A stretch of DNA of 64,000 bases from an uncultured Microthrixaceae bacterium (GTDB taxonomy: Bacteria > Actinomycetota > Acidimicrobiia > Acidimicrobiales > VFJN01): assembly GCA_963715505.1 (NCBI GenBank), contig OY970242.1:1439166-1503165 (forward strand), in the 5' to 3' direction. The stretch's first letter is position 1. Each line of letters opens with the position of its first letter. The notes under the pieces were generated by a model. It saw only the letters and a program-made list of their open reading frames with translations, did not search any database and had not been told where the DNA came from. Below, piece by piece: positions 32,647 to 48,509 of this stretch. A program made the position numbers and the translations under genes.

Positions 32647-34185
32647 TCACCCGAAGCGGTGGAGGTTCGCCGGCTCGAAGGCGTCGCCGGCGGTGGCGAG
32701 GATCGTGCCGGAGCGCCGTGCCCCGAGGTGGATCACGAGGGTCTCGCACTGCTCGGTGAAGGTGCGGTACGAGCCGTTCCACACCACCCACACCGCGCCC
32801 GGCCCAGCCCGCTCGATGGCCGCCTCCGCGAAGGCGACGGGATCCGCATCGGCGTTGCGCTGCGCGTAGTCCCGCCAGTCGACGAAGCGAGGATCGCCAC
32901 CCGCCGGGTAGGGCACCACCTCCACCGGCACGCCGCGCAGGGCGCGCTCGAGGCTCGGGCCGAGCTGGTCGGGACAGGCGACGACCACGTCGCCCGGGCT
33001 GGCCCCCGCAGCGATGGTGTCGCCCAGGTCCTGGACCTGCGTGCGCGCATCGACGGCGTTGTGCGCGATGCCGACGACGGCGAGGCCCAGCAGGGCAGCG
33101 GACAGCCCCCACCGCAGCCAGCCGCCCGACAGGCGCGTGAGCCCGATCGCCGCGACCAGCAGCACCACCGGGACCACCACCGACGCGTAGCGCGAGGCGT
33201 AGGCGCCGCCGGCGGCGTACCCCGCCAAGGTCCCCAGCGCCAGGGCCGTCCCGACCACGACCAGCTCGTCGCGCACGAGGGGCACGACGCGGTCGCCGAG
33301 CTCGACCGCCGCCCCGGCGCGCGCGCTCGGCCGTGCGAAGGCGGCGAGGAGCACGAGCACCACCACGGCGATGCCGTAGAGGCGGGCCTCGGCGAAGCCG
33401 CCCCCGCCGAGGTCGGCGAGGGTCACGTCGACGATCGTCGTCGGTCGCGACGGGCTCGCCCATGGCGTGCCGGTGTGGGCCGCCTGGTCGACGAAGACCC
33501 CCAGCCACGCGACGAACGTGGTGCTGCCCAGGGCGATGGCGGAAGCGGCGGCCAGCGTCGCGCGCCGCCGTGCCGGCTGGCGCCACCACCGCATCACGAG
33601 CAGGCCGCCCGTCGCGGCGATGAGGTACAGCGCCCAGTAGTGCGTCCACAGCAGGGCCGCGGCGATGCCGGCGAGGAGCACCACGTCGAGGGTGCGGGGC
33701 GTGCTGAGGACCCGGGCCAGCACGACGTAGCCGGCCGCCACCAGGAACATCACGAGCGCGTACATGCGCGCCTCGGTGGCGTAGCGCACCGCGAACGGCG
33801 ACAGGGCGAGGACGACGACCGCCCACGCGGCACCGCCTCGGCCAGCCATGCGGCGGCCCGCTGCCCAGGCGAGCGGGAGCGTGGCGACCGAGAGCAGCCC
33901 GGAGAGCGCCCGCACGGCGACGTCGCCGTCACCGAACAGCGACATCCAGCCGTGCAGCAGCCAGTAGTAGAGCGGCGGGTGTCCGTCGTGGCGCAGCGCA
34001 TCGGGGATGTCGCCGACCGGCAGAGAGGCGATGTTGACCGACAGCGCCTCGTCGAGCCACAGCGGCGACGTGGTGAGGAACCGCGCCACGATCCCGAGCA
34101 CCACCGCGGCCACGACGGCGGCCGGCAGGAGCCCGCTTCGCAGCGCGGATCGCCCGCTCGGCGGGAGGGGTTCGGTCGGCGGCAT
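32647..34185 (-). CDS. GT39/PMT_2-like polytopic membrane glycosyltransferase (ArnT/PMT family)
   Basis: ATG at 34183-34185 (alternative GTG at 34200). LWLDEALSVNIA...GHPPLYYWLLHGW and about 10 hydrophobic segments, followed by a soluble C-terminal domain. Confidence 0.8.
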   Translation of the reverse strand: MPPTEPLPPSGRSALRSGLLPAAVVAAVVLGIVARFLTTSPLWLDEALSVNIASLPVGDIPDALRHDGHPPLYYWLLHGWMSLFGDGDVAVRALSGLLSVATLPLAWAAGRRMAGRGGAAWAVVVLALSPFAVRYATEARMYALVMFLVAAGYVVLARVLSTPRTLDVVLLAGIAAALLWTHYWALYLIAATGGLLVMRWWRQPARRRATLAAASAIALGSTTFVAWLGVFVDQAAHTGTPWASPSRPTTIVDVTLADLGGGGFAEARLYGIAVVVLVLLAAFARPSARAGAAVELGDRVVPLVRDELVVVGTALALGTLAGYAAGGAYASRYASVVVPVVLLVAAIGLTRLSGGWLRWGLSAALLGLAVVGIAHNAVDARTQVQDLGDTIAAGASPGDVVVACPDQLGPSLERALRGVPVEVVPYPAGGDPRFVDWRDYAQRNADADPVAFAEAAIERAGPGAVWVVWNGSYRTFTEQCETLVIHLGARRSGTILATAGDAFEPANLHRFG

Positions 34186-34296
34186 GGCGCCATACCTCAC
34201 TCGATCCGGCCTGGTCGTGTCGACCCGGTCGATGCGTGGTGCGCCGGCGGGGCACCACTACGCTCGGGCGCCACGCCTCACGCCCTGGACGGACCC

Positions 34297-35835
34297 TTGA
34301 CCACCACTGCACCCCTGCCCCAGCACGACGACGGGCGGCCCGCCGATCCCGGCGCGGTCGTCGTGATCGGCGCGGGCCCTGCGGGGCTGACCGCGGCCTA
34401 CGAGCTCGGCAAGCGCGGCGCCACCGCCACCGTCCTCGAGGCCGACGACGTCGTCGGGGGCATCAGCCGAACCGTGGTGGCCGACGGCTACCGCTTCGAC
34501 ATCGGCGGCCACCGGTTCTTCACCAAGGTCGCCGAGGTGGAGGCCCTCTGGCACGAGATCCTCCCCGACGAGGACTTCATGCTGCGGCCTCGGTCGAGCC
34601 GCATCTACTACGGCGGCAAGTTCTACGACTACCCGATCCGTCCGCTCAACGCGCTGCGCAACCTTGGCGCGGTGGAGGCGGTGCGCTGCGTGCTGTCGTA
34701 CCTCTGGGTGCGCGTGCGGCCCCCGAAGGACCAGTCGTCGCTCGAGGGGTACATCGCCGCCAACTACGGCTGGCGCCTGTACCAGCACTTCTTCAAGACC
34801 TACAGCGAGAAGGTGTGGGCGGTGCCCGCCTCGGACATCTCGGCGGAGTGGGGGGCGCAGCGCATCAAGGGCATGTCGCTGCTGAGCGCCGTCTGGGAGC
34901 CGCTGCGGGCCCGCGTCGCCGGCGCGCGGCGCGACCGGGCGAAGCAGGTCACCAGCCTGATCGAGCAGTTCCAGTACCCGAAGTACGGGCCCGGGATGAT
35001 GTGGGAGCGCTGCCACGCACTCGTCGAGGCGCAGGGCTCGAAGGTCCACCTGGGGGCGCGGGTCACCGCCATCGGCCACGGCGGCGGACGTGCCAGCTCC
35101 GTGACGGCGCAGGACGCGTCCGGTGCGGCCTCGACCCACGCGGCGGACCACGTGATCTCCTCGATGCCGTTCCCCGCGCTGCTGCGGGCGATGGACCCGC
35201 CGGTGCCTGCCGAGGTGCAGGCGGCGGCCGACGACCTCACCTTTCGTGACTTCCTCTCCGTGGCCCTCGTCGTCCCGGCCGACAAGGTGGCCTGGGACGA
35301 CAACTGGATCTACATCCATGCGCCCGAGGTCAAGACGATGCGGGTGCAGAACTTCGGGTCCTGGTCGCCGCACCTGGTGAAGGACGGCCGCAACGTGCTG
35401 GGCCTCGAGTACACCGTCACCGAGGGCGACGAGTGGTGGACCGCCACCGACGAGGAGCTGATCGAGAAGGGCAAGGCCGAGCTGGAGCTGCTCGGGCTCA
35501 TGCGCAGCGCAGACGTCGAGGCCGGCTACGTCGTGCGGATGCCCAAGGCGTACCCCGTCTACGACGAGGACTACCGCACCAACGTCGAGGTGCTGCGGGC
35601 ATGGCTGGCAGCGAACGCGCCGAACGTGCACCCCGTCGGCCGCAACGGCATGCACAAGTACAACAACCAGGACCACTCGATGTACACGGCGATGCTCACC
35701 GTCGAGAACCTCTTCGGCGCCTCGCACGACATCTGGGACGTGAACGTCGACGACGAGTACCACGAGGAGTCCTCCTCGGGCACCGGCGAGCGGGGCACCG
35801 GCCGCGACGCTCCCGTGCTCCCCAAGCGCTCCTGA
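34297..35835 (+). CDS. NAD(P)/FAD-dependent oxidoreductase (amine-oxidase/UDP-galactopyranose-mutase-like fold)
   Basis: TTG at 34297 is the best in-frame start before the dinucleotide motif VVVIGAGPAGLTAAYEL. GGHRFFTK is also present. The upstream 700 codons of ORF 32146..35835 are the antisense shadow of the GT39 gene. Confidence 0.8.
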   Translation: MTTTAPLPQHDDGRPADPGAVVVIGAGPAGLTAAYELGKRGATATVLEADDVVGGISRTVVADGYRFDIGGHRFFTKVAEVEALWHEILPDEDFMLRPRSSRIYYGGKFYDYPIRPLNALRNLGAVEAVRCVLSYLWVRVRPPKDQSSLEGYIAANYGWRLYQHFFKTYSEKVWAVPASDISAEWGAQRIKGMSLLSAVWEPLRARVAGARRDRAKQVTSLIEQFQYPKYGPGMMWERCHALVEAQGSKVHLGARVTAIGHGGGRASSVTAQDASGAASTHAADHVISSMPFPALLRAMDPPVPAEVQAAADDLTFRDFLSVALVVPADKVAWDDNWIYIHAPEVKTMRVQNFGSWSPHLVKDGRNVLGLEYTVTEGDEWWTATDEELIEKGKAELELLGLMRSADVEAGYVVRMPKAYPVYDEDYRTNVEVLRAWLAANAPNVHPVGRNGMHKYNNQDHSMYTAMLTVENLFGASHDIWDVNVDDEYHEESSSGTGERGTGRDAPVLPKRS

Positions 35836-35847
35836 CCCTCGTCGCCG

Positions 35848-37782
35848 TCAGCCGCGGCGCTCGAGGGGGGCGACCGCCACGGTGAGGGTCCCGCGGTCGC
35901 GCTGGCGGGCGAGCAGCGCCCAGCGCCGGAGCAGCTCGCCGTGCTCGCCCGGCGCGGACAGCTGGCCCCGCACCACGGCGTCGGCCACCACGCCCGGGTG
36001 GTCCAGGAGGCCGGGATCGAGCGACCCGTCCGGGCCGGGCTGCAGCAGGGCCAGATCCGCCGGGTCCTGCCGGCGGCCGCGGTCGGTGAGGCGCACGTCG
36101 CCGTGGCGCGCCATCGCCCGCACGCGTCGCCGCAGCTCCGCCTCGGTGCGCGCCGCGTCCGGGGTCAGCCCCTCGACGGCCGCCAGGACGCGCGCGCCGG
36201 CGGGCAGGGCCGGGCCTGGCCCCTGGAGGACCAGGAGGCGGGCCCGCTCCTGGCCCTCGGCCCGCCGGCCCTCGCCGAGCTGTCGCACCAGGCCCTCGTC
36301 GTCGACCACGACCTCGATGCCGTGCCGATCGAGCTCCATCACGACCGCGATGCTGTAGGGCTCGAACACCCGCAGCACCTCCTCGTCGAGCAGCAGCGGC
36401 CCGCTCACCTCGGCGGTCTCGAGCTGCGGCGCGACGGCGTGCAGCACGGGCGCCGCGTCGTCGTCCGCCGTTGGCCCGACCGCCTGCCGGTGACGTCCCA
36501 GCGAGGCCCCCACCAGGACCACGACGGCGAGGACGGCGGTCGTCTGCAGGGCGCGGGCGTGGCGCTCCCCGGCGAGGGCGGCGACGCCGAGGGCAGCCGT
36601 GAGCACGCCGAGGGGCCAGAGCCAGCGAACCTGGTGGACGGCGAAGCCGTAGGCGCTGAGCGGCAGGATGGCGATGGTGACGAGGCCGGCGACGAGGGCC
36701 GCGCCGAGGACCGCGGCCGCCGCTGCCCAGCGACGCTCCCCGCGGCGCCATGCCATCGCACCCGCCAGCACCAGCCCTGCCAGCAGGGTGGCCAGGGCGG
36801 CCAGGCCGCCCGCCGTCGACGGCACGCCGCGCAGCGCATCCACCCCGCCACCGCTGCCCACCTCCTCGAAGCGCGAGGCGAACTCGGACCGGCCCCAGCC
36901 CGGGACGGGGCCGATGACCGACGTCAGCACCCGTGCCGCGTCGGCTGCGCCGACCGCCGCTTCCTCGCCTGCCGTCGCGGCGCGCGCCAGTCGGGCCAGG
37001 TTGCCCTCGCCGGGCCCGGCGAGCTGCTCGGCCACGGGCTGCGCCCATGCCAGGGCGCCGACCGCCACGCTCGCCAGGAGCCACCGCCGCCAGCGCCGGC
37101 GATCTGGTGCACCGCGGCCGTGCAGGACCACGAGCGCGGCGCCGGCGACGAGCAGCACGACCGGCACGAGCAGCACGTAGGGCAGGTGCGTCTGCACGAG
37201 GAGCGATCCGACGCCGACCGCACCCGCCAGTGCCGCACCCCGTCCTGCCGCGGCCGACCAGGCGAGCACCACGAAGGCCAGGAACGGCAGGAGCAACGCG
37301 TGCGGCTGCCAGGGGTCGACGAGGAGCGCCGAGCCCATCGACCAGCTCAGCGCCGCGACGGCGCTGGCGACCACCAGCGCACCCGTGGCCCCCGCGGTGC
37401 GCCACCCGACGAGCACCGCGGTCACCGCGCTGGCCGACGCCAGCAGCGCCGTGCCGACCATCGGGCCGAGCACGGGGTCGATCCTGGCGGGGATCGCGAG
37501 GACGTCGAAGAGGAGCGGGCCGGGGTTGTTGACCTGGATCCCCGTGCTGCGCGACGACGAGCTCCACGTGCCGAGCCACGGGTGGTGACCGCTCAGGACG
37601 TCGCGCGCTCGGAGCGAGAAGTAGGCGTTGTCGCCGACGGGGTACCACCCGTCGCGCACGGCCCACAGCACGGCCGTGGCGATGGGGGCGAGCACCAGCA
37701 CCAGCAGCGCAGCCAGCCAGACCGCGCTCGGCACGGCGAGGCCGAGCCGCCCAGGCCTCGCCGGGCGCGCCGTGGCCGTCAC
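35848..37782 (-). CDS. polytopic membrane protein A (644 aa), putative GT-C-type glycosyltransferase; paralogue of the upstream gene
   Basis: Its GTG at 37780-37782 overlaps the upstream TGA (GTGA). Multi-TM N-terminal half with NNPGPLLFDVLAIPAR, DPWQPHALLLPF and VQTHLPYVLL, then a soluble C-terminal half. Confidence 0.8.
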   Translation of the reverse strand: MTATARPARPGRLGLAVPSAVWLAALLVLVLAPIATAVLWAVRDGWYPVGDNAYFSLRARDVLSGHHPWLGTWSSSSRSTGIQVNNPGPLLFDVLAIPARIDPVLGPMVGTALLASASAVTAVLVGWRTAGATGALVVASAVAALSWSMGSALLVDPWQPHALLLPFLAFVVLAWSAAAGRGAALAGAVGVGSLLVQTHLPYVLLVPVVLLVAGAALVVLHGRGAPDRRRWRRWLLASVAVGALAWAQPVAEQLAGPGEGNLARLARAATAGEEAAVGAADAARVLTSVIGPVPGWGRSEFASRFEEVGSGGGVDALRGVPSTAGGLAALATLLAGLVLAGAMAWRRGERRWAAAAAVLGAALVAGLVTIAILPLSAYGFAVHQVRWLWPLGVLTAALGVAALAGERHARALQTTAVLAVVVLVGASLGRHRQAVGPTADDDAAPVLHAVAPQLETAEVSGPLLLDEEVLRVFEPYSIAVVMELDRHGIEVVVDDEGLVRQLGEGRRAEGQERARLLVLQGPGPALPAGARVLAAVEGLTPDAARTEAELRRRVRAMARHGDVRLTDRGRRQDPADLALLQPGPDGSLDPGLLDHPGVVADAVVRGQLSAPGEHGELLRRWALLARQRDRGTLTVAVAPLERRG

Positions 37783-39638
37783 TCCACGCTCGTACCGGGA
37801 GCCGCCACGAACACGGCGGTCGGGACCCCGAGCTGGAGCATCTTCGCCATCCGCAGCTGCGTCGCGAACGGCACCCGCACGTCGATCGACGCCGTGAAGA
37901 GGTTCTCGTCGAGGTGCGGGACCAGCTCGGCCAGGCCGGCGGCCTCGAGGTCGTCGACCACCCGGGTGCGCAGCAGCGCGAGCTCGGCGTCGTCGGCCGC
38001 CGAGCGGGGATCGACCCGCGCCACCTCGACGGCGCCGGGCAGAGCCCGCCAGGCGTCGATGGCGGCCTCGCCGGTGACGAGCACCACCCGCGCGGTGGCC
38101 TCGGCGTCGGTGAGGGTCCGCTGCGGGGTGGCCGGCACCCGGTAGAGCGGCGCGGCCCCGACGTCGAAGCCGCGGCGCTCGAGCTCGCTGAGCAGCCCAT
38201 AGCCCTGGGAGCCGATGTGGGTGCTGTCGTCCCAGACGACGAGGTAGCGGCCGGCGTCCCCGTCGGCCGCCCCGGTGCCGGCCTCGAGGGCTGCCGCCGT
38301 CGGTGCCACGAGCGGGGCGAGGACGGCAGAGAGCTCGTGGTCGGAGCGGGACGCGCCGGGCGCGTCGAGCGCCAGGCGGGCCGAGGCCGCGACGGCGACG
38401 GCGGCCAGGCACACCGCACCGATCCGACCGGCCCGGCGCGCCCGGTCCGGTGGCAGCGCGCGGCTCGCCCAGGTCGCCGCCGTCGAGATGGTGGCGAGCA
38501 CCATCAGCGCGGCGACGCCCCAGATCCACAGCATCAGGTAGAACCACATGAACCCGAAGATGCGGCTCACCGCCAGCACCGCGAGCAGGAGCGCCACGGC
38601 GACGACGGCGTGGAGGAGCAGCAGGCGCCGGTCGCGCAGCCAGACCGCGCCGGCCACGGCCAGCACCCAGACGGCGAGCACCGCCTGGCCGCGCCCGGGG
38701 CTGGCGGGGCGGTCCAGCGATCCGGGCACGAGCACCCCCGGCTCCGCCGACCCGTCGGTGACGACGTGGACGACGTCGAGGCGCCGGCTCACCTCGGTGA
38801 CGGCCTCGGCGACGCCGGCCGGGACCTCGCCCTCGGGCGGGGTGACGAGGTGCTCCACGATCATCCGGTAGTTGCCCGGGTCGTTGGTGAGCTGGTCGAT
38901 CGTCGGTGGCGCCCACAGGACGACCCCGACGACGGCGGCCAGGGCGCCCCACCGCAGCGCCCGGCGCCGCGTCGCGGCAGCGGGCGCGGAGCGCACGGCG
39001 ACCAGCCAGGCGAGCGCGGCGAGGGCCCCGAGCCCGAGGCACAGCGCGAGGTAGGGGACGTGCGTCTGGGCGCAGAACGAGGCGGCAGCCACGGCGACGG
39101 GCAGCATGAGCAGGTCGCCGCAGGCCACCGACCACACGGCGAGCAGCACCACGATCCACCACAGCAGCGGCAGGTAGGGGTTCCACGGCTCGCTGAGTGC
39201 GGTCACGCCGTAGCCGAGGCTCAGCACGGCGAGCATCGCAGCGGTGCCCAGCGCCAGCGTGCGCCCGCCGCGCCGGGCGGCGATGGCGAGCGCTGCCGCG
39301 ATGGCGCCGACGTGCAGCACCACGGCGGCCACCACCATCGACCACGCCGACGAGCCGAGCAGCCGGTAGGTCGGCGCCAGGAGGTAGAAGCTGAGCGGAC
39401 CAGGGTGGCTCCCCTGACGCTCGAAGGTGCCGATCCGCCCCGGCAGACCGACGAGGGGCGTGTCGGCGCCGCCGACGTCGCGCAGGCGAAGCTCGGTCAT
39501 CGCCAGGTCGAGGACCGGCATCCAGACGGGCCGGCGCATCGTCACGGCGGCGACGACGAGGGGCAGCGCGACGACGGCGAGGAGGCCGGCCAGGAGCGGC
39601 CGGGGCGCTCCCTGGCGTGCTGCGGTCAGCGCAGCCAC
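37779..39638 (-). CDS. polytopic membrane protein B (619 aa), putative GT-C-type glycosyltransferase
   Basis: GTG at 39636-39638 (13-nt overlap with the upstream gene). Motifs SHPGPLSFYLLAPTYR, EPWNPYLPLLWW and AQTHVPYLAL align with protein A. Confidence 0.8.
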   Translation of the reverse strand: MAALTAARQGAPRPLLAGLLAVVALPLVVAAVTMRRPVWMPVLDLAMTELRLRDVGGADTPLVGLPGRIGTFERQGSHPGPLSFYLLAPTYRLLGSSAWSMVVAAVVLHVGAIAAALAIAARRGGRTLALGTAAMLAVLSLGYGVTALSEPWNPYLPLLWWIVVLLAVWSVACGDLLMLPVAVAAASFCAQTHVPYLALCLGLGALAALAWLVAVRSAPAAATRRRALRWGALAAVVGVVLWAPPTIDQLTNDPGNYRMIVEHLVTPPEGEVPAGVAEAVTEVSRRLDVVHVVTDGSAEPGVLVPGSLDRPASPGRGQAVLAVWVLAVAGAVWLRDRRLLLLHAVVAVALLLAVLAVSRIFGFMWFYLMLWIWGVAALMVLATISTAATWASRALPPDRARRAGRIGAVCLAAVAVAASARLALDAPGASRSDHELSAVLAPLVAPTAAALEAGTGAADGDAGRYLVVWDDSTHIGSQGYGLLSELERRGFDVGAAPLYRVPATPQRTLTDAEATARVVLVTGEAAIDAWRALPGAVEVARVDPRSAADDAELALLRTRVVDDLEAAGLAELVPHLDENLFTASIDVRVPFATQLRMAKMLQLGVPTAVFVAAPGTSVE

Positions 39639-40645
39639 TTCAACGCCTTGAGCAGGCCGAGCTTGACCGGCGACTGGTGCTGCGAGCGACCCTCGCCGCT
39701 GAGCTCGTCGCGGTGCTGCAGGAACCACTCGTAGGACTCGATCACCATCGAGGCGTTGCTGTGCCGCGGTGCCCAGCCGAGCTCCTCCTGCGCCCTGGTC
39801 GTGTCGAACCACAGCGACTCGCCGTAGAGCAGCCAGTGGTACGGGGCGAAGGGGCCGAGGCCCGCGGCAGACAGCGCGCGCATCGCCAGGCGCGCCGGGG
39901 CCATCGGCACCGACCGCACGCGCGACCCCGTGGCCGCCGCCCGGCACAGCTCCTCGAGCGTGTCGCGCATCGTGCCGAACTCGGCGGCGCCGATGTTGTA
40001 GTCGGCGGGACCGGCGCGGCCGCCCGCCGCCAGGCAGGCGGTGGCGAGGTCGTCGGCGTGGACGAGCTGGTAGCGGTTCGCTCCCCCGTCGAACACGAAG
40101 ACCGCTGCGCCCTCGGCCACGAGCTCGAAGAGGATCGCCATGAGGCCCAGCCGCCCGTGGCCGAGGATCGTGCGCGGGCGAACGATCGAGACGTCGAGTC
40201 CGTCGTCGACGGCGCGGCGGCACAGGGCCTCCGCCTCGAGCTTGGCCCGGCCGTAGGCCTCGAGCGGTCGAGGTGGGGTCCGCTCGTCGACCGGGTTGGC
40301 GTCGGGGATCCCGTAGACGGCGCTCGTGGAGGTGTGGACGACCTTGCCCACACCGGCGTCGCGGGCGGCGAGGAGGACGTTGGCCGTGCCGACGACGTTC
40401 ACCGACCAGAAGAGGTGGCGGTCCTTGGCGAGGGGCACCTGCGCCACGTTGTGCAGCACGACGTCGACGCCCTCGCTGGCGGCGCGCACGGCCGCGAGGT
40501 CGCGCACGTCGGCCTGGATCGTCTCGGCGCCGGCCGGGCCGGGGTTGAGGTCGAGCACCCGCACCACGTCGCCGCGGGCGAGCGCCCGCTCGACGAGGAT
40601 CGAGCCGAAGTAGCCGCTGCCGCCGGTGACGAGGACGGTGCTCAC
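39626..40645 (-). CDS. NAD-dependent epimerase/dehydratase (extended SDR), paralogue 2
   Basis: Its GTG at 40643-40645 overlaps the upstream TGA. VTGGSGYFG (GxxGxxG) and YGRAKLEAE (YxxxK). Confidence 0.85.
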   Translation of the reverse strand: MSTVLVTGGSGYFGSILVERALARGDVVRVLDLNPGPAGAETIQADVRDLAAVRAASEGVDVVLHNVAQVPLAKDRHLFWSVNVVGTANVLLAARDAGVGKVVHTSTSAVYGIPDANPVDERTPPRPLEAYGRAKLEAEALCRRAVDDGLDVSIVRPRTILGHGRLGLMAILFELVAEGAAVFVFDGGANRYQLVHADDLATACLAAGGRAGPADYNIGAAEFGTMRDTLEELCRAAATGSRVRSVPMAPARLAMRALSAAGLGPFAPYHWLLYGESLWFDTTRAQEELGWAPRHSNASMVIESYEWFLQHRDELSGEGRSQHQSPVKLGLLKALKWLR

Positions 40646-41694
40646 AGCGGCCGGCCGTTGGCGAGGCACCAGCGGATGCTGGCTCGCATCCCCTCGAGCA
40701 GCCCGGTGGCTGGCCGGTAGCCGATCTCCTCGCTGGCGCGGGCGGTGTCGCAGGCGATGGTCTCCTTCAGCTCGCCCAGCACGTGGGCCGCCTGCACGTA
40801 GCGACCGATGCGCTGGGTGGCGCGGTCGACCACCTCCGCGGCACGTCCCACCGCCCGCGGGATGCGGGGCTGACCTCCCGAGACCGCCAGCCCCTCGTCA
40901 CGCAGTGCGCGGCGCACCGTGGTGAGGACCTCCGCCATGGTGTAGGGCTCGGGATCGGCGATCCAGTACGCCCGGCCAGGCCGGGCAGCGGCCTCGGCCC
41001 GGAGGATGCCGTGCACGAGGTTGCCCGTGTACACCATCGACCGGCGGTTGCTGCCGTCGCCGACCAGCGGGAAGCGGCCACGGCGGACGGCACGCAGCCA
41101 GGCGGTCTGCCGGTCGGGCTGCTGGGGTCCGTAGAACCACGGTGGGCGCACCACCACGGCGTCGACGTCGCCGCGCGCCGCGGCGGCCAGGACGAGCTGC
41201 TCGGCCTCGAGCTTCGAGGCGCCGTAGGCCAGGTAGGGCCGGTAGGCGCTGTCCTCGTCGAAGCGGTCGTCAGGGTGGTCGTTGACGCCGAACGGGGAGT
41301 TCGACGACACGTGCACGAGCCGCCCGGCGCCGTGTCGCCGGGCGCGGTCGAGGACCAGCGCCGTGCCGCCGACGTTGACGTCGTAGAGCAGGCGCGTCCG
41401 TCCGCCCGGGTGGATGACCGCCGCCGCGTGCACGACGGTCGAGCCCGGGGCGCACCCCGCGAAGAGGCGGTCGAGCGCCGCCGGGTCGCGCACGTCGCCC
41501 ACCACGGGGTCGACGGCGCGCCCGGCGAGGGCGACGAGGGCCGCCTCCTCGGCGGTCTGCACCAGGACGCGCACGTGCTCGCGCTCGCCCGCCGTGGCGT
41601 CGAGGAGGTTGCGCCCCAGCCAGCCCGCCGCGCCCGTGACGACGAGGGTGGGCGAGGCCGGTCGGTCGGTGGCGATGGGCGGGTGGTCGGTCAT
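40642..41694 (-). CDS. NAD-dependent epimerase/dehydratase (extended SDR), paralogue 1
   Basis: Its ATG at 41692-41694 overlaps the upstream TGA (ATGA). VTGAAGWLG and YGASKLEAE. Confidence 0.85.
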   Translation of the reverse strand: MTDHPPIATDRPASPTLVVTGAAGWLGRNLLDATAGEREHVRVLVQTAEEAALVALAGRAVDPVVGDVRDPAALDRLFAGCAPGSTVVHAAAVIHPGGRTRLLYDVNVGGTALVLDRARRHGAGRLVHVSSNSPFGVNDHPDDRFDEDSAYRPYLAYGASKLEAEQLVLAAAARGDVDAVVVRPPWFYGPQQPDRQTAWLRAVRRGRFPLVGDGSNRRSMVYTGNLVHGILRAEAAARPGRAYWIADPEPYTMAEVLTTVRRALRDEGLAVSGGQPRIPRAVGRAAEVVDRATQRIGRYVQAAHVLGELKETIACDTARASEEIGYRPATGLLEGMRASIRWCLANGRPL

Positions 41695-43115
41695 GACGTG
41701 GCGAGGAGGTGGTCGGCGTTGCGCGCTGCGACGGTCATGACGGCGGCCTGCGGGTTGACGCCCGGGGCCTCGGGGAGCAGCGATGCGTCGGCCACGCGCA
41801 GGTTGGCGATCCCGTGGACGACGCCGAAGCTGTCCGCCGACGAGCGCGAGCGGTCTTCCCCCATCCGCACCGATGACGTCAGGTGGACGGTCATCAGGTT
41901 GGCCCGGCGCCGGTCGAGGGCCCCCCACCAGCTGTGCAGGTCGGCGATGCAGCGCGCCGTCGCCGCACCGGTCAGGGAGGGGTGCAGCTCGGTGGCGCCC
42001 GCGGCCAGCAGGGCTTCGCCCAGGTGCACCAGGCCCCTGGCGAGGCGGCTCAGGTCGCCGTCGGTGAGCCGGTAGGTCACCAAGGGCGCCGCCAGGCCCG
42101 GCAGGGCGCGGACGGTGCCGCCCGCGTCGCTGCGGATCGCCGCGTAGTACACGAAGCGGTGCCGCCAGTCGCTCATCGCCGCCTCGACGTCGGCGCCCGC
42201 GTCGGCCAGCGCCAGCCCGAGGTGGCCTGGCCGGCTGGCCGAACCGCCGATGGCGATGGAGGGGGCGAACTCGGTGATGCGCTGCATCGGGACGTCGTCG
42301 TGGTCGAGGACCTCGTCGAAGCGGGCCACCACCTTCACCGTGGGGTGGACCTTGAGGCCCCGCCCGACCCCGCCGCGGATGCCGCTGCGCTGCAGCAGCG
42401 CCGGGGTCTGGATGGCGCCGCCGCAGACGACGACCTGCTCGGCGCACACCGTGAGGGGCTCCTGGCTGCCGTCGGGTCGGGTGCGGCGGACCTCGACGGC
42501 GCGGACGCGGCCCCGGTGGGTTCGCAGGCGCACGGCCCGCCAGCCCGCCTCCACCGTGGCACCGTGGGCCACGGCACGCGGCAGCACGCTGCGCGACATG
42601 GTCTGCTTGGTGCCCCGCCCGCGGTCGTCGTAGCGGAAGGCGCGCGGGAACTCCTCGGAGCGCCACCCGAGGGCGGCCGCTCCCCGGGCCAGCACCGCCG
42701 AGGACGGTGGCACCTCGCCCGGGACGGTGCCCACCCCGAGCCACGACTCCACTCGCGCGGCGTAGCGGTCGAGCAGCTCGGGACCCAGCTCCACGATGTC
42801 GTGGTGGTGGCGCCAGCGCTCCGCCAGGTGGTGCGGGAGGCGATGCCACAGGCCGCTGTTGACCTCGGTGCTGCCCCCGACGCAGCGCCCCTCGGCGTAG
42901 GCGATCGGCGGCGAGCCCAGTGCCGCCGAGGAGCCGTGGTGGCGGTAGCTGCTGGCCAGCTCGTCCAGCGAGAACGGCTCCACCGCGCCTGGCTCGACCC
43001 GCGGCCCCTCCTCCAGGACCAGCACGCCGCGGCCCGCCTCGGCGAGCACGGCAGCGGTGGTGGCCCCACCCGCGCCCGAGCCGATCACCGCCACGTCGAC
43101 GTCGATGGCGGTCAC
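41691..43115 (-). CDS. GMC-family FAD oxidoreductase
   Basis: Its GTG at 43113-43115 overlaps the upstream TGA. DVAVIGSGAGG, and C-terminal MTVHLTSSVRMG...NLRVADASLLPEAPGVNPQAAVMTVAARNA, typical of GMC_oxred_C. Confidence 0.85.
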   Translation of the reverse strand: MTAIDVDVAVIGSGAGGATTAAVLAEAGRGVLVLEEGPRVEPGAVEPFSLDELASSYRHHGSSAALGSPPIAYAEGRCVGGSTEVNSGLWHRLPHHLAERWRHHHDIVELGPELLDRYAARVESWLGVGTVPGEVPPSSAVLARGAAALGWRSEEFPRAFRYDDRGRGTKQTMSRSVLPRAVAHGATVEAGWRAVRLRTHRGRVRAVEVRRTRPDGSQEPLTVCAEQVVVCGGAIQTPALLQRSGIRGGVGRGLKVHPTVKVVARFDEVLDHDDVPMQRITEFAPSIAIGGSASRPGHLGLALADAGADVEAAMSDWRHRFVYYAAIRSDAGGTVRALPGLAAPLVTYRLTDGDLSRLARGLVHLGEALLAAGATELHPSLTGAATARCIADLHSWWGALDRRRANLMTVHLTSSVRMGEDRSRSSADSFGVVHGIANLRVADASLLPEAPGVNPQAAVMTVAARNADHLLATS

Positions 43116-43459
43116 CCGCCGCGAGGTCCGCTGCCGAGCTCGAGGTCGCCGAAGAGCACGAGCGAGCGCAGGAGCCGGAGGTGCTGTCGGACGGGCGGCA
43201 GCGGGCTGGCCGCCAGGGCGTCGACCAGGGCCTGGCCACGCCGGCCGGCGAGGCGCGCCCAGCCGCCCAGCACGAGCGAGCCGGCGGCCACGCCGGCGCG
43301 GAGGATCTCGGGCATGGCCTGCAGCGTGGCGTCGACCCAGGCCACGACGTCGGCCCGTCGGGCGGGATCGGTCGTGGTCGACAGGGCCTCCACCACCTCG
43401 CGTTCGAATCGCAGCACGGCCGGCAACCCTACTTGTGGTGCCGGGCGGGACCGCTGCAC
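43112..43459 (-). CDS. 115-aa hypothetical protein translationally coupled to the GMC oxidoreductase
   Basis: GTG at 43457-43459, 7 nt after the UbiA stop. Helical-looking, non-shadow composition. Its stop overlaps the GMC start. Confidence 0.55.
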   Translation of the reverse strand: MQRSRPAPQVGLPAVLRFEREVVEALSTTTDPARRADVVAWVDATLQAMPEILRAGVAAGSLVLGGWARLAGRRGQALVDALAASPLPPVRQHLRLLRSLVLFGDLELGSGPRGG

Positions 43460-43466
43460 CGAGCGG

Positions 43467-44405
43467 TCAGCCGGCCAGCGGTGGCGCCCCCGCCACGTAG
43501 ACCCCCGCGGCGAGGCACCCCGCCCAGATCATGGCGATGACCTGGAGCGGCCGGTCGCCGAGCACGATGTCCTCGGGGCCCGCCAGCTCGGTCGAGTCGT
43601 GCACGAGCACGTAGCGCAGGACGACCGCGGTGAAGGGAACGATCGACACCTCGAACCACGGGAACCAGCTGTCGGCGACCGAGGCCTTCTCGAAGGCCCA
43701 GAGGCAGTAGGCGAGCAAGGTGACGCCGGCCGCGACGGACCGCACGAGCAGCAGGAACGACGGCGAGTAGACGTCGAGCGTCCGGCGGTGCGCCGCGGCG
43801 CCGGCACCGAGCTGCAGCTCCGAGGCGCGCTTGCCCGCCACGAGGAACAGCGAACCGAACGACGCCACGATCAGGTACCAGTCCGACAGCGGGATGTCGG
43901 TGCCGACCACGCCCGCCACCGCGCGCAGCACGAAGCCCGCCGCCACGACCAGGATGTCGACCACCGCGACGTGCTTCAGCCAGTGGGTGTAGGCGGTGGT
44001 GAGGCCCACGTACCCGACCAGCACCAGCACCGTGGCGACCGAGCCGGTGAGCGCGGCGCCGAGCACCGCTGCGGCCAGGAGGCCGGCGCCCAGCAGCCTC
44101 GCGGTGACGGGGGCGACCTCGCCGGCGGCGACCGGCCGCCGGCGCTTCGTCGGGTGGTGGCGGTCGGCATCGGCGTCGGCGGCGTCGTTGAGGCAGTACG
44201 TGCCGGCGGCCGCCAGGCAGAAGGCGACGAACACCAGCGAGGCGCGCAGCAGGTGCTCGGACTCGTCGAGCACGCCGGCGGCGGCCGGCCCCGCGAACAC
44301 CAGCACGTTCTTGGTCCACTGGCGGGGGCGCACGAGGCGCAGCAGCGGTGGCAGCTCGGCCTGCACGCCGACGTCAGGTTGCACCGGGCGATCGTAGGCC
44401 ACCAC
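43467..44405 (-). CDS. UbiA-family polyprenyl-phosphate phosphoribosyltransferase (decaprenyl-phosphate 5-phosphoribosyltransferase type)
   Basis: GTG at 44403-44405 (or 44400-44402), preceded by GGAAGGG. LRLVRPRQWTKNVLVF, the Asp-rich motif NDAADADADRHHPTK and 8-9 TM segments. Confidence 0.85.
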   Translation of the reverse strand: MVAYDRPVQPDVGVQAELPPLLRLVRPRQWTKNVLVFAGPAAAGVLDESEHLLRASLVFVAFCLAAAGTYCLNDAADADADRHHPTKRRRPVAAGEVAPVTARLLGAGLLAAAVLGAALTGSVATVLVLVGYVGLTTAYTHWLKHVAVVDILVVAAGFVLRAVAGVVGTDIPLSDWYLIVASFGSLFLVAGKRASELQLGAGAAAHRRTLDVYSPSFLLLVRSVAAGVTLLAYCLWAFEKASVADSWFPWFEVSIVPFTAVVLRYVLVHDSTELAGPEDIVLGDRPLQVIAMIWAGCLAAGVYVAGAPPLAG

Positions 44406-44420
44406 TACCCTTCCGCCTCG

Positions 44421-46069
44421 ATGCCTCCCAGCCCCGGCGCGACGCGGCGCCTCGCGCTCCCCCTCGCCGTCGTGGCGGCCGTCATGGCCTTGCCGGCGTG
44501 GGGTCTGTGGACCAACCCGGGCCCGCCGATGGAAGAGGGCTTCATGCTCGTCTTCCCCGAGCGCGTCCTCGCCGGCGACGTGCCCAACCGAGACTTCCTG
44601 CACCTCTACGGCCCGGGCAGCCTCTGGGTGCTCGCCGCGGCCTACTGGGCGTTCGGCACCTCGCTGGCGGTGCAGCGCATCGTCGGCATCCTCCAGATCG
44701 TCGGCCTGGTGGCGGCCATCGGCGCCCTGCTGCGCCCGTGGGGCCGCGCGGCGGCGGTGAGCGGCGCCGTCACGGCGACGCTCGTCATCATCACGCCGAC
44801 GGGGTTCACCGCCATGGCCTGGGTCGGCGGCGTCGCGCTGGGCCTGTGGTCGGTCTGGGCGGGCGTGGAGGCCGTCGAGGCGCCCGCCGGCTCCGCCCGG
44901 CGCCGGCGGCTGGCGCTGGCGTGCGGCGCTCTGGCGGGGCTGGCCCTGCTCTACCGCCTCGATCTCGTCGTGGCCGTCGGCCTCGCCCTCGTCCTGGTGC
45001 TGCGGTCGCTCGACGGCCCGGCACGCCGGCGGCTCCTGGTCGGCGCGGTGGCGGGCGCCAGCCCCTACCTCGTGCACCTCGCCACCGCCGGCGTCGGTGC
45101 CGTCGCGCGCGGGATGGTCCTCGAGCCCGTGTTCGACCTCCGCGGGGGCGCGCCCTGCCGCTGCCACCATCCACCACCGGCTTCGACGGGTTCCTCCAGC
45201 GTGCCTGGCTCCTGCCGGAGGTGCGCCCGCCCTACCCGCTCCCCGCGCCCAGCGGCCCCGTGCAGATGAACCTCTGGGTGGCGCTCCTGCTCCTCGCCAC
45301 CGTGGCGCTGGTCGCCGCCGGCGTCGTCGCCGCCCGCCGCGGCCAGGGCCGGCTGCTCGTGATGGCGGCCTTCGCCGCCGGCCTGCTCCCCCAGGCCCTG
45401 CAGCGCGCCGACTCGACGCACCTCGCCTGGGTGAGCTGCGTGACCCTCGGCCTGGCGCCCGCCGCGCTCATCGAGCTGACCGGAGGTCTCCGCGGCACGC
45501 ACCTCGGTCGTCGCCGCGCCCTGGCCGCGCTGGCCGCGCCCCTGGCCCTCCTGGTGGCCGTCCCGTTCTTCACGTACCGCAGCTACGGGGAGGCGGTCGC
45601 CCAGACCTTCGGGGAGCGCCGCCGGTCCTTCGAGATGTCCTACCAGGGGCGCCGCTTCCTCTACGGCCGCGAGGACGCAGCCCAGGCCGTCAACGAGCTG
45701 CTCCCGCTGGTCGATGCGCTGACCGAGCCCGGTGACCGGCTCTTCGTCGGTCCCGTCGACCTCCGCCAGACCCCCTACAGCGAGGCGTACCTCTACCACC
45801 TGCTGCCCGACCTCGTCCCCGCCACCCGCTACATCGAGATGGACCCCGGCGTCGCCAACACGCCGGAGTCGGGTCTGGCCGAGGAGCTGGCGGCGGCCGA
45901 CGTGGCGGTGCTGTCGAGCATCCGGGCCGACTGGGAGGAGCCCAACGACTCGCGACGATTCGGCCCCGACGCGCCCAACCGGGTCCTCGCCGAGCAGTTC
46001 TGCCTGGTCGCCGCCTACGGGGAGGGCCCCGCAGGGCGCGGCCTCTTCGAGGTCCACGCCCGCTGCTGA
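44421..46069 (+). pseudogene. large integral membrane protein (putative GT-C glycosyltransferase), one frameshift near 45147
   Basis: ATG at 44421, MPPSPGATRRLALPLAVVAAV...NRDFLHLYGPGSLW...VFDLRGG. The reading continues in the ORF 44348..46069 frame as RALPLPPSTTGFDGFLQRAWLL...FEVHARC*. Confidence 0.75.
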
Positions 46070-46099: not shown

Positions 46100-46834
46100 G
46101 TGCTGGCGATGCGCGCCCTCGTGGTCCTGCCGACGTACGACGAGGCCGAGAACATCACCGAGGCGCTCCGGCGGGTGCGAGCCGCGGCGCCGCAGCTCGA
46201 CGTGCTCGTGGTCGACGACAACAGCCCCGACGGCACCGCCAAGCTGGCCATGGCCGCCGCCGAGGAGCTGGGCCAGATCGACGTCCTCGTGCGCGACCGC
46301 AAGGAGGGCCTCGGCAACGCCTACCGGCACGGCTTCGAGGTCGGGATGGAGCGCGGCTACGACGTGCTGCTGCAGATGGACGCCGACCTGTCGCACGATG
46401 CGGCGTCCCTGCCCGACCTGCTGCGCGCGCTCGACGAGGGCGCCGAGGCGACGATCGGGTCGCGGTACGTGCCGGGAGGGTCGATCCCCCACTGGCCCTG
46501 GTATCGGCGGGCGCTCTCGCGCTACGGCAACCGCTACGCCTGCCTCGTGCTCGGGATGGACGTGCACGACGCCACTTCCGGCTTCCGGGCCTACCGCGTG
46601 GAAGCGCTGGAGTCGATCGACGTGCTGACCACGCGCGCCAAGGGCTACGGCTTCCAGATCGAGACCGCCTACCGCGTGGCGCGAGCCGGCCGGAAGCTCG
46701 CCGAGGTGCCGATCAGCTTCACCGACCGCGTGCGCGGCTACTCGAAGATGTCGGTGAGCGTCATGGCCGAGGAGCTGCTGCTCGTCACGTGGTGGGGGTT
46801 CCGCGACCGGGTGCTGCGCCGGGCGCGTCGCTGA
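46100..46834 (+). CDS. polyprenol-phosphate mannose synthase-like GT2 (Ppm1/DPM1 type)
   Basis: VVLPTYDEAENI, VVDDNSPDGT, QMDADLSHD and GFRAYR. Start is GTG 46100 or ATG 46109. Confidence 0.85.
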   Translation: MLAMRALVVLPTYDEAENITEALRRVRAAAPQLDVLVVDDNSPDGTAKLAMAAAEELGQIDVLVRDRKEGLGNAYRHGFEVGMERGYDVLLQMDADLSHDAASLPDLLRALDEGAEATIGSRYVPGGSIPHWPWYRRALSRYGNRYACLVLGMDVHDATSGFRAYRVEALESIDVLTTRAKGYGFQIETAYRVARAGRKLAEVPISFTDRVRGYSKMSVSVMAEELLLVTWWGFRDRVLRRARR

Positions 46835-48298
46835 GCGGCCGCGCCACGAGGAGGATCGACAGCCCCACCGGGAGGTCGGCGCCGCGCAGGACGAACCGCT
46901 CGAAGGCCGTCATGCGCTCGAGCGCCCAGCTGACCCACGGGTGCACGAAGCTGGCCTCCTCGGCGCTGCCGCGCAGGAGCCGCCCCACGGGCGTGCGCCG
47001 CACCACCACGGCGACCGGGGTCAGCCAGGCGTGGAAGTGGCTGCAGCGCAGCACCTCGAGGCCGGCCGCCTCGGCGGCCGTGCGCAGCATGGCGCGGTCG
47101 TAGCGGCGGCGGTGGCCGAGGCGCACGTCGTGGTCGGACCAGGCCCACTGGTAGGCGGGCACGGCGACGACCACCAGGCCTTGCGGGCCGGTGGCGCGCG
47201 CCAGCTCGCGCAGGCCTGCGACGTCGTCGTCGAGGTGCTCGACCACGTCGAGGCACACCACCGCGGCCGCGGCGCCCCTGCGCAGCGGCAGGGCCTCGGC
47301 GGCGGCGCGCGCGACGTGCGGCCGCGGGTCGATGCGCACCGTCCAGCGCAGCGCCGCCTCGTCGAGCTCGACGCCGACCGCCGGCCAGCCTGACGCGTGC
47401 AGCTGCTCGAGCAGGCCACCGGTGCCGGACCCGACGTCGAGGACGGTGCCGCGCACGCCGCGGCGGGCGAGCTCCGCGACGACGAGCTCCCGCTTGGCCC
47501 GGAACCACCAGTGCTCGCGCTCCACCCGGCCCATGGCGTCGATGGCCTCGGCGTCCATGCCCTTGAGCAGCCCGGCCCGCTCGGCCGGCGTGCCGGCCCG
47601 CTCCTCGCGCCCGAGGAGACGGCGGATGCGCAGCGCCGACCACGCCATGCTGAGCCCGTCCTGGACGGGACGGACCCGACTGGCGTCGACGTGGGACCAC
47701 TGCACGCCGAGCGGCTCGATCCGCATGCCGGACCGCTGCCGCGGGCGAGCACCTCGACGTCGAAGGCGAAGCGCTCGGTCACGAGGGCGCCGAAGATCCG
47801 ATCGGCCGCGGCCGCCGAGAGCCCCTTGAGGCCGCACTGCGTGTCGCGCTCGCGGGTCAGCCCGAGCGCGCGCAGCAGCAGGTTGAAGGTCCGGCCCGAC
47901 GCCACCCGCAGGGCCGGCTGGTTGCGGTGCAGGAGGCTGTCGGGGTGGGCGCGGGTGCCGTAGACGAGCTCGGCGCCCGCCTCCAGCGCCTCGAAGCAGG
48001 CCGCGATGTCGTCGGTGGAGACGCACAGGTCGGCGTCGACGAACACGCGGGCATCACCGACCGCCTGGAGCATCCCGGCCCGCACCGCGGCGCCCTTGCC
48101 GCGGTTGGCGGGCAGGCGCAGCACCCGGCTGGCCGCCAGGCCCGCAGCGGCCACGGCCTTCTCGGCCACCTCGGGCGTCCCGTCGCCGCTGCCGTCGTCG
48201 ACGAGGACGATCTCCAGGCGCTCGTCGCACAGGCCCGACGCCGCCAGGACCCCGATGGTCGCGTCGATCCGGGTCGACTCGTCGAACATCGGGATCAC
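46785..48298 (-). pseudogene. GT2 glycosyltransferase fused to a class I SAM methyltransferase, one frameshift near 47743; start uncertain
   Basis: The GT2 part is (V)IPMFDESTRI...VLVDDGSGDGT...VDADL...FAFDVEVLA, in the ORF 47021..48661 frame. It continues with no intervening stop in the ORF 46785..48026 frame as SGMRIEPLGVQWSHVDASRVRP...EREHWWF...VLDVGSGTGG.... Candidate starts are GTG 48298, ATG 48289 and GTG 48478/48484. Confidence 0.7.
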
Positions 48299-48509
48299 CA
48301 GCGACCTGGTGGGGCGCCCGCCGTGCTCGCGGTCGAGCGAGGGCGATCGTGTGGGCGTCGTCGTGGCTCCCGGGTCGAGTGCGTCCGGGATCCCGGACGG
48401 CGAGGTCCTAGAGTACGGAGGGCCTGGCCGCCGTCGCAACGACCGTCGGGGCCCCCGTCCCCGAGCCGCCGTGCACACCGACACCTCACCCACCGCCGCC
48501 CACGCACGC

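Follow-up and report, generated by a model that had tools for sequence, protein, structure and literature searches.

DprE1 and DprE2 are together a major drug target in tuberculosis. They are also one of the precedents for the tailoring of lipid-linked ribofuranose: this pair leads to arabinofuranose, and a single extended short-chain dehydrogenase/reductase (SDR), ORF13, leads to xylofuranose (Kelly et al., PNAS 2024, PMC11127046). ORF13 is found in the so-called three-component systems of Citrobacter youngae O1/O2, which consist of a PRP-PPPRS (ORF15), a MATE/SMR transporter, a promiscuous GT-C glycosyltransferase (ORF12) and the SDR epimerase ORF13 itself. As a class, such systems comprise a polyprenyl-phosphate phosphoribosyltransferase, a 5'-phosphatase (HAD or PAP2), a transporter, a GT-C enzyme and auxiliary epimerases. 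Rhizobium sp. CCGE531 (CP032687.1) appears in SI Fig. S12 of the same study as a "more elaborate" example, equipped with several epimerases. The locus described here lies in a stretch of 64,000 nucleotides (the window) of contig OY970242.1 from an uncultured Microthrixaceae bacterium of the class Acidimicrobiia. In this locus, the gene of a UbiA-family phosphoribosyltransferase is followed by those of a small protein, a GMC flavoprotein and two extended SDRs, SDR1 and SDR2; the last four proteins are referred to as the module. We propose, with a probability of roughly 65%, that the locus is a polyprenyl-phosphate pentofuranose glycosylation system in which the module tailors lipid-linked ribose, as a branch parallel to DprE1/DprE2. 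The original prediction for this DNA was that the flavoprotein and the SDRs might replace DprE1/DprE2 or else carry out a further modification of a polyprenyl-phosphate-pentose.

The window has a base composition of ~75% G+C. Seven open reading frames run along its minus strand from 44405 down to 35848:

43467–44405, minus strand: putative UbiA-family polyprenyl-phosphate 5-phosphoribosyltransferase of the DPPR-synthase type (NF008978, Pfam UbiA)
43112–43417 (longest reading frame to 43459), minus strand: small helical protein, predicted partner of the GMC protein, probable start GTG 43417
41691–43115, minus strand: GMC-family FAD oxidoreductase of 474 aa (Pfam GMC_oxred_N and GMC_oxred_C)
40642–41694, minus strand: extended SDR of group 1, SDR1 (Pfam Epimerase PF01370, E 5e-35)
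39626–40645, minus strand: extended SDR of group 2, SDR2 (Pfam Epimerase PF01370, E 4e-39)
37779–39638, minus strand: mem1, membrane glycosyltransferase with a modelled GT-C fold (AlphaFold2 and Foldseek)
35848–37782, minus strand: mem2, a mem1 paralogue with nine hydrophobic segments

All seven translate without interruption. Neighbouring genes are joined by GTGA at 43112–43115, ATGA at 41691–41694, GTGA at 40642–40645, a 13-nt overlap at 39626–39638 and GTGA at 37779–37782. The third-position GC of the seven genes lies between 0.91 and 0.98, with a phase consistent with the minus strand, and a simple coding-score gene call combined with codon-position GC profiles recovers the same chain from 44405 to 35848. 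The predicted seven-gene chain and its overlaps are thus borne out by translation, junctions and codon-position GC.

The first gene had been predicted to encode a UbiA protein of the Rv3806c type, which was upheld: the protein carries the N-terminal block LRPRQWTKNVLVF and the Asp-rich NDxxDxxxD motif NDAADADADRHHPTK, and it passes the NCBIfam equivalog NF008978 (decaprenyl-phosphate phosphoribosyltransferase) with 335.7 bits against a cut-off of 207. On the mycobacterial-type model NF008976 it scores 268, below the required 474. Pfam UbiA is matched with E 2e-22, and the protein is polytopic, with seven predicted hydrophobic segments. From these matches we infer that it acts as a polyprenyl-phosphate phosphoribosyltransferase. 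Among its orthologues of at least 62% identity (the window, L001–L004, L010, L083, L084, L170 and L171; loci are cited by their L numbers), all those with visible context adjoin the small protein, the GMC protein and the two SDRs.

The assignment of the third gene to the GMC family was likewise confirmed, as both GMC domains are present (PF00732, E 6e-31; PF05199, E 1e-17). The protein falls under the cut-offs of all NCBIfam equivalogs, and its relatives of known structure are distant in sequence (E 1e-11 or weaker). Its FAD motif G12-S-G-x-G-G17 and the pair His411/Asn454 are invariant from Actinomycetota to rhizobia. No signal peptide could be read from the sequence of any module protein, the GMC protein included. 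The two SDRs were originally described as paralogues. They are indeed extended SDRs with the expected motifs, but they are not recent paralogues: SDR1 and SDR2 share only ~24–29% identity and form two distinct orthologous groups, each conserved across phyla. The catalytic Ser and YxxxK are invariant in both from Actinomycetota to Alphaproteobacteria. Across lineages, SDR1 retains TGxxGWLG, an SSNS stretch and Y157xxxK161. A function of SDR1 as a 4,6-dehydratase was considered and ruled out, since its sequence does not contain the TDE dehydratase motif. SDR2 retains TGGSGxxG, Asp32 and Y131xxxK135, together with a conserved amphipathic C-terminal tail, S-x-H-x-x-P-V-K-x-x-L-L; its top NCBIfam match is HpnA, at 118 bits and under the cut-off.

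The gene between UbiA and GMC had been reported as an unknown of 115 aa separated from UbiA by 7 nt. The gene is real, but its length and the gap probably need correction. The homologues begin at residue ~15–16 of the 115-aa reading frame, which points to GTG 43417, preceded by TAGGG, as the start; the protein is then probably 101 aa long and the gap to UbiA ~49 nt. In most loci the small-protein gene lies directly upstream of the GMC gene with a stop/start overlap. A hidden Markov model (HMM) built on clear members detects divergent copies in the group-2 loci, in L050 and on rhizobial plasmids. In two metagenomic loci (L123 and L163) the small protein and the GMC protein form one in-frame fusion, giving products of 609 and 643 aa in which the small-protein domain spans residues ~37–122. 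Because of these natural fusions, the small protein and the GMC protein are predicted to form a physical complex. The family is tiny, with 91 clusters at 50% identity among 1.84 billion representatives. An AlphaFold2 model of the small protein consists of five helices (pLDDT 89.8). It has no match in Pfam (E up to 10) or NCBIfam and no fold relative in the PDB according to Foldseek (best E 1.1). A role as the Gluconate_2-dh3-type subunit of a two-subunit GMC dehydrogenase was also considered; no match to that family appeared.

The evidence that ties the module to UbiA comes from gene context in many lineages. A genome scan with one genome per species returned 80 loci, nearly all labelled as Acidimicrobiia or unclassified Actinomycetota; the exceptions were one Conexibacteraceae metagenome-assembled genome (MAG) and L082, which is titled Bordetella parapertussis and probably mis-assigned. 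The closest match to the window GMC among the species representatives is 75% identical and comes from a Microthrixaceae MAG. In the 47 genome loci with at least 8 kb on either side (the full-flank set), SDR1 was found in 44, SDR2 in 45, homologues of mem1/mem2 in 43, a pair of AftD and GT4 genes in 34, a GT2 gene in 29 and UbiA in 10. The conserved core is therefore the small protein–GMC pair, SDR1–SDR2 and a mem1-type membrane protein. More than 100 independent loci carry this same set of genes, which places the arrangement far beyond chance.

UbiA is joined to this core in different ways. The order of the window type is UbiA, small protein, GMC, SDR1, SDR2 and GT-C. In the Conexibacteraceae MAG (L050, Thermoleophilia), the genes of GMC, UbiA, SDR1, a GtrA protein and a 719-aa membrane protein overlap or abut; there SDR2 is divergent and the small-protein gene lies upstream. 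A metagenome scan seeded with the L050 GMC revealed further orders. One locus (L090) has a MOP-type flippase, the small protein, GMC, UbiA, SDR1, a HAD phosphatase and SDR2. In three others (L123, L161 and L163) a HAD::UbiA fusion precedes GMC, SDR1 and SDR2. L150 has HAD, UbiA, a methyltransferase, the small protein, GMC, SDR1, SDR2, an AftD-like gene and mem1, and in L153 and L160 UbiA follows GMC, SDR1 and SDR2. The coupling thus persists through at least three gene orders and a change of UbiA subfamily, accompanied by HAD phosphatases and by transporters of the GtrA, SMR or MOP type. It spans Acidimicrobiia, the Thermoleophilia MAG, metagenomic lineages without assignment and plasmids of rhizobia. 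Because several independent arrangements bring them together, the module can be tied to UbiA. The predicted functional link of the GMC and SDR genes to UbiA and to polyprenyl-phosphate-sugar glycosyltransferases gains support from this recurrence.

The most compact arrangement is that of the rhizobia. When the window GMC was compared with plasmids by tblastn, full-length relatives of 38–40% identity were found on rhizobial symbiosis plasmids. The clusters of CCGE531 (pRCCGE531b) and Sinorhizobium fredii NGR234 (pNGR234a) hold an SDR, an SMR transporter, the small protein and GMC, and for the remainder a divergent 658-aa membrane protein, an SDR and a HAD::UbiA fusion, and nothing else. The version on pMLa of Mesorhizobium japonicum is interrupted by an insertion sequence (IS) element. 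The CCGE531 record already listed as a more elaborate system, CP032687.1, carries the orthologous module. All four module proteins are one-to-one orthologous with those of the window (SDR2 52–53%, SDR1 40–45% and GMC 39–43% identical; small-protein HMM, E ~1e-6). Compared with the window, the rhizobial cluster is compact, has HAD::UbiA, an SMR transporter and one 658-aa membrane protein, and is located on a mobile symbiosis plasmid. It contains no GT2 and no nucleotide-sugar genes, which makes any substrate but the one supplied by UbiA less likely. The seven-gene cluster of NGR234 (L168, record positions 299625–307690) lies a few kb from nodS/nodU, with an IS21 element between them. It is a possibility that this cluster modifies a symbiosis-related glycan.

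The membrane proteins downstream of the module were originally called GT-C-like. This was confirmed for mem1 by a structure model; for mem2 it is probable from paralogy to mem1. The AlphaFold2 model of mem1, made with 30 homologues, has a pLDDT of 89.5 and a pTM of 0.91. Its top Foldseek match in the PDB is ArnT (5F15; E 2e-5, TM-score 0.47/0.53), and the top 32 PDB matches are all of the GT-C type, including AftA, AglB, PglB, ALG9, AftB, EmbA/B and AftD. The GT-C fold of mem1 is assigned from this model, as sequence profiles found nothing: neither mem1 nor mem2 matches a Pfam or NCBIfam family. In the loop after the first transmembrane segment of mem1, Asp44 is invariant and Asp54 nearly so among 26–30 homologues, and the two residues may have a catalytic role. 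The mem1 orthologue of Actinospongicola halichondriae is named "ArnT family glycosyltransferase" by NCBI. The mem2 protein is 24% identical to mem1, aligns with the mem1 family and co-occurs with mem1 in many loci; it is probably a second GT-C enzyme. A third, divergent membrane protein of ~550 aa, encoded upstream of UbiA on the opposite strand, is distantly related to mem1 and mem2 (hhalign probability 92.7% over 90 columns). Profile searches of PDB sequences were empty for mem1, mem2 and the ~550-aa protein, and the last has no Pfam match either. Comparisons by hhalign of the membrane-protein profiles with the GT-C domain of AftD, the rhizobial 658-aa protein and the 719-aa protein of L050 were not significant.

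Taken as a pathway, the locus would work as follows. UbiA would make polyprenyl-phosphate-ribose-5-phosphate, from which a phosphatase would then remove the 5'-phosphate; in relatives this enzyme would be supplied as a HAD protein encoded in the operon or fused to UbiA. The GMC protein and its small partner, both cytoplasmic, would oxidise the lipid-linked ribofuranose at C5 or at a ring hydroxyl, and the two SDRs would reduce and/or epimerise the oxidised intermediate. SDR2 probably docks on the membrane via its amphipathic tail. The outcome would be a lipid-linked donor whose sugar is neither ribofuranose nor, most likely, arabinofuranose. A transporter (GtrA, SMR or MOP in relatives) would flip the donor, and the GT-C enzymes mem1, mem2, AftD-like and PMT_2-like would use it to build or decorate a cell-envelope glycan. 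Three redox enzymes exceed what a single epimerisation needs, which leaves room for a double inversion to lyxofuranose or for another derivative. In the proposed route to lyxofuranose, one carbon would undergo flavin-dependent oxidation and reduction by NAD(P)H and the other an epimerisation by an SDR, so that C2 and C3 would both be inverted. It is a tentative and rather doubtful suggestion that the module makes a pentofuranose donor so far unseen in any glycan, such as polyprenyl-phosphate-D-lyxofuranose or a C5-oxidised derivative. If true, this sugar would be a decoration of the envelopes, or of symbiosis-related glycans, in Acidimicrobiia and rhizobia.

Several observations weigh against the tailoring of lipid-linked ribose by the module. 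Within 10 kb of the module, 37 of the 47 full-flank Acidimicrobiia loci have no UbiA gene, though one may be present at another place in these genomes. A GT2 resembling polyprenyl-phosphate-hexose synthases often adjoins the module, so that a hexose substrate is possible in Acidimicrobiia. The window shows no flippase, as its scanned genes match no GtrA, SMR or MOP/MATE family, and a homologue search found no GtrA homologue in the window or in the Acidimicrobiia loci. No phosphatase was identified next to UbiA in the window. No xylose, lyxose or unusual sugar was reported in A. halichondriae by thin-layer chromatography (TLC). From sequence, we infer the substrate of the module, the position it attacks and its product alike.

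The relation of the module to the canonical enzymes bears on the original prediction directly. A VAO-fold FAD oxidase on the DprE1 model was taken as DprE1, and a classical SDR of ~250 aa on the DprE2 model as DprE2. The first tblastn probes were M. tuberculosis DprE1 and DprE2 sequences, and the matches were validated independently by NCBIfam. When the 64-kb window was searched by tblastn with DprE1 and DprE2 of Acidimicrobiia, nothing better than E 0.006 was found, and that match was SDR2 itself. No VAO-type or FAD_binding_4 protein is present among the scanned called genes of the window, with a few short reading frames lying outside the scan. The original statement that the window holds neither a VAO-type protein nor a classical SDR holds for the former among the scanned genes; for the latter, a classical-SDR fragment exists at 55281–55772, which is not DprE2-like. 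Elsewhere, the canonical DprE1, DprE2 and UbiA share a cluster with GMC, SDR1 and SDR2 in Ilumatobacteraceae-type loci (L052, L053, L062, L065, L074 and L077). Both sets are also present in metagenome loci (L099, L107, L117, L129 and L135) and partially in two genome loci (L059 and L070). A representative DprE1 scores 593.9 bits on NF053785 (cut-off 500), and a representative DprE2 319 bits on NF053786 (cut-off 250). Since the two sets co-occur in one cluster, they are expected to do different things.

The reverse case is found in A. halichondriae Hal317T, a cultured member of the Iamiaceae with a complete genome (L083, CP171622.1, 1595483–1616376). It has the arrangement of the window, in the order two AftD-like genes, GT4, GT2, UbiA, small protein, GMC, SDR, SDR and the mem1 orthologue. 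Its published table of KEGG orthology (KO) assignments gives one copy of UbiA (K14136 = 1) and no dprE1 (K16653 = 0) or dprE2 (K16652 = 0); of the six other Iamiaceae type strains, four carry the full set of these KOs, and Actinomarinicola tropica carries none (PMC12263773). As whole-cell sugars of A. halichondriae, rhamnose, ribose, mannose and galactose have been published, and neither arabinose nor xylose is among them. These were determined by TLC of whole-cell hydrolysates, in which a minor sugar would escape. A lineage with the module alone thus makes no arabinose detectable by TLC, as judged from this one isolate. It follows that the product of the module is minor, not resolved by TLC, or not a simple pentose epimer. 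The same isolate has two tandem AftD-like genes and an aftB KO together with neither DprE1/DprE2 nor arabinose, so that "AftD-like" need not mean arabinofuranosyl transfer.

A replacement of DprE1/DprE2 would require the GMC protein to oxidise C2' of polyprenyl-phosphate-ribose and an SDR to reduce the 2'-keto intermediate to polyprenyl-phosphate-arabinofuranose, the donor for the AftD-like enzyme. GMC enzymes such as the pyranose oxidases do oxidise secondary sugar hydroxyls. The window contains no DprE1/DprE2 homologue, and the module occupies the slot that DprE1/DprE2-like genes have in noeCHOP-like rhizobial clusters. The genome of A. halichondriae also speaks for this, with UbiA, two AftD-like genes and an aftB KO retained and with DprE1/DprE2 absent. 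However, the canonical pair lies beside the whole module in at least 11 loci, where a redundant set of four genes is unlikely to be conserved at 50–75% identity, and the whole-cell hydrolysates of the module-only isolate showed no arabinose. The module also has three redox enzymes, and C2 epimerisation needs two. A straight replacement is therefore poorly supported and is considered unlikely. The other half of the original prediction, a further modification of a polyprenyl-phosphate-pentose, has fared better. A different objection starts from the GT2, which resembles AglJ, ArnC and PpgS: it adjoins the module in 29 of the 47 loci against 10 for UbiA, and the closest solved relatives of the SDRs by sequence are nucleotide-sugar enzymes. 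The module might then act on a polyprenyl-phosphate-hexose made by the GT2 or on a cytoplasmic nucleotide sugar, with UbiA a mere neighbour. This is quite improbable in view of the rhizobial clusters, in which the module is accompanied by nothing but HAD::UbiA, a transporter and a large membrane protein, and of L050, L090, L123 and L163, where the genes of UbiA, HAD and GtrA are interspersed among those of the module and translationally coupled to them. The top NCBIfam matches of the SDRs are to lipid-acting enzymes (HpnA, OleD, SdmB) and not to GalE or RmlB, and SDR1 has no 4,6-dehydratase TDE motif.

Those lipid-acting matches could themselves be read as a sign that the module alters the lipid carrier rather than the sugar, for instance by oxidation or reduction of the polyprenol. 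The SDRs score on the models of 3-beta-HSD, OleD, HpnA and SdmB, cholesterol oxidase belongs to the GMC enzymes, and the gene of a CrtI-like flavoprotein often lies nearby in Acidimicrobiia. Yet the scores are all well under the family cut-offs, and the module accompanies a UbiA protein dependent on phosphoribosyl pyrophosphate (PRPP), HAD enzymes and flippases even in rhizobial clusters that have no CrtI-like gene. We know of no precedent for such a modification, which is very improbable. The tailoring of lipid-linked ribose beside DprE1/DprE2 is the reading preferred here.

The chain is embedded in a large chromosomal cluster of envelope-glycan genes with several GT-C, GT2 and GT4 genes. The other features of the window are:

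32647–34200, minus strand: PMT_2-type GT-C membrane protein (Pfam PMT_2, E 7e-12; also in the related loci L010 and L018)
34297–35835, plus strand: amine-oxidase/CrtI-like flavoprotein of the PRK07208 family (NCBIfam NF005548, 742 bits vs cut-off 389)
44424–46069, plus strand: divergently transcribed membrane protein of ~550 aa, split by a frameshift (a single gene in L001 and L083)
46100–46834, plus strand: GT2, similar to polyprenyl-phosphate hexose synthases (Pfam Glycos_transf_2, E 1.4e-27)
46785–47726: methyltransferase
48006–53934, plus strand: GT4 followed by AftD-like GT-C with a carbohydrate-binding module (Pfam Glycos_transf_1; GT-C_AftD, PF11847, E 1.4e-78; CBM_AftD)
53945–55284, plus strand: alpha/beta hydrolase and NT5C-type HAD-superfamily phosphatase (NT5C at 54616–55284), with a stop/start overlap, after the AftD-like gene
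55281–55772, minus strand: truncated classical SDR (adh_short) of 163 aa
62980–63873, plus strand: LytR-CpsA-Psr family protein (LCP ligase; E 7e-37)

The match to PF11847 bears out the predicted AftD-like protein near the chain. The best NCBIfam matches of the GT2 are AglJ, a Dol-P-hexose transferase, ArnC and PpgS, all under their cut-offs. The hydrolase/NT5C pair is 68–89% identical in L001, L004, L018 and L084, and Pfam finds both families in L170; the NT5C-type protein, at the edge of the cluster, is the sole and purely tentative candidate in the window for the 5'-phosphatase. Members of the LytR-CpsA-Psr family attach glycopolymers to peptidoglycan, and the LCP protein may serve the glycan made by the cluster. 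NF005548 (PRK07208.1-4) carries only the name "hypothetical protein". The gene of this CrtI-like flavoprotein was found in 12 of 83 related genome loci and in 10 of the 47 full-flank loci, all of group 1; it recurs beside the module in Acidimicrobiia and is absent from the rhizobial clusters. The window also carries, on the plus strand, three paralogous AMP-binding acyl-CoA synthetases (12943–14454, 15326–16825 and 29965–31488), as well as genes of an acyl-CoA dehydrogenase, an enoyl-CoA hydratase and an aldehyde dehydrogenase. These are genes of lipid catabolism and unrelated to the module.

Some genes of the window appear to be split or fused. In the ~550-aa membrane protein, tblastn revealed a change from frame 3 to frame 2 at 45146–45149, which gives two overlapping reading frames, the upstream one ending with a Cys/Pro/Arg-rich tail that looks out of frame. 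The homologue is one gene of 543–556 aa in L001 and L083, and it is unsplit in other loci as well. The AftD-like gene changes frame near 51913–51920 (tblastn). The GT4 is in frame with it and no stop lies between them (junction at ~49532–49689); in L001 and L083 the two are separate proteins of ~376–395 and 1401–1445 aa, whose genes overlap by 4 nt. Other genes that look truncated are a Patatin fragment (8214–8744), a GDPD gene (14543–15139) and the SDR at 55281–55772. The split and fused genes suggest indel errors in a long-read MAG assembly, not genuine pseudogenes or fusions.

A search of the available literature found no paper that characterises the GMC protein, its small partner or the two SDRs, and nothing relevant on the NGR234 cluster. 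If the reading preferred here is correct, the locus defines a third way to diversify lipid-linked ribofuranose, by a set of four proteins, after DprE1/DprE2 and the SDR that forms xylofuranose. This set is conserved from Acidimicrobiia to rhizobial symbiosis plasmids; its flavoprotein has another fold, and its small subunit is without known relatives. Once identified, the product would broaden the chemistry known for pentofuranose glycosylation and shed light on the cell envelope of Acidimicrobiia, a group plentiful in soil, water and activated sludge whose envelope has hardly been studied. It might also account for the long-unannotated cluster beside the nod genes of NGR234. Since the module is carried by the cultured A. 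halichondriae and by NGR234, a laboratory model of long standing, the proposal is directly testable.

Among enzymes of the same family, pyranose oxidase, 6'''-hydroxyparomomycin C oxidase and choline oxidase convert an alcohol to a carbonyl. The GMC protein of the module has in common with these GMC oxidoreductases the GxGxxG motif, the two domains and the His/Asn pair; unlike them, it is shorter (474 aa), remote in sequence (E 1e-11 or weaker) and associated with a partner of ~100 aa that has no fold relative. The locus can also be compared with the genes for D-arabinosylation of the noeCHOP type in Azorhizobium caulinodans, for which a similar layout exists on plasmid p2 of Rhizobium leguminosarum. 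These likewise consist of UbiA, a transporter, a redox pair and a large membrane protein, but the pair is a DprE1-like FAD-binding oxidoreductase and a DprE2-like SDR of 249 aa, not a GMC protein with extended SDRs.

With the mycobacterial pathway (Rv3806c, Rv3807c, DprE1/DprE2, Rv3789, Aft/Emb), the locus shares the UbiA family and an AftD-like GT-C with a carbohydrate-binding module, and the logic of a flavoenzyme followed by an NAD(P)H-dependent reductase is plausible for both. It differs in that the flavoprotein has the GMC and not the VAO fold, that the SDRs are extended enzymes of ~340–350 aa rather than a classical SDR of 254 aa, and that a third redox enzyme and a small subunit are present; furthermore, DprE1/DprE2 coexist with the module in other Acidimicrobiia. 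The closest resemblance is to the three-component systems. As in these, a PRPP-dependent UbiA-type transferase and a final GT-C transferase are encoded in one locus, and relatives of the module have HAD proteins fused to or near UbiA and transporters of the SMR, GtrA or MOP type. Tailoring of lipid-linked ribofuranose by an extended SDR on the cytoplasmic side would be a further common trait, with ORF13 compared by its description only. The differences are a GMC protein with a dedicated small subunit, two different SDRs, and a window in which no phosphatase or flippase is recognisable. The locus belongs to the class of systems described by Kelly et al. (2024) and is not categorically new.

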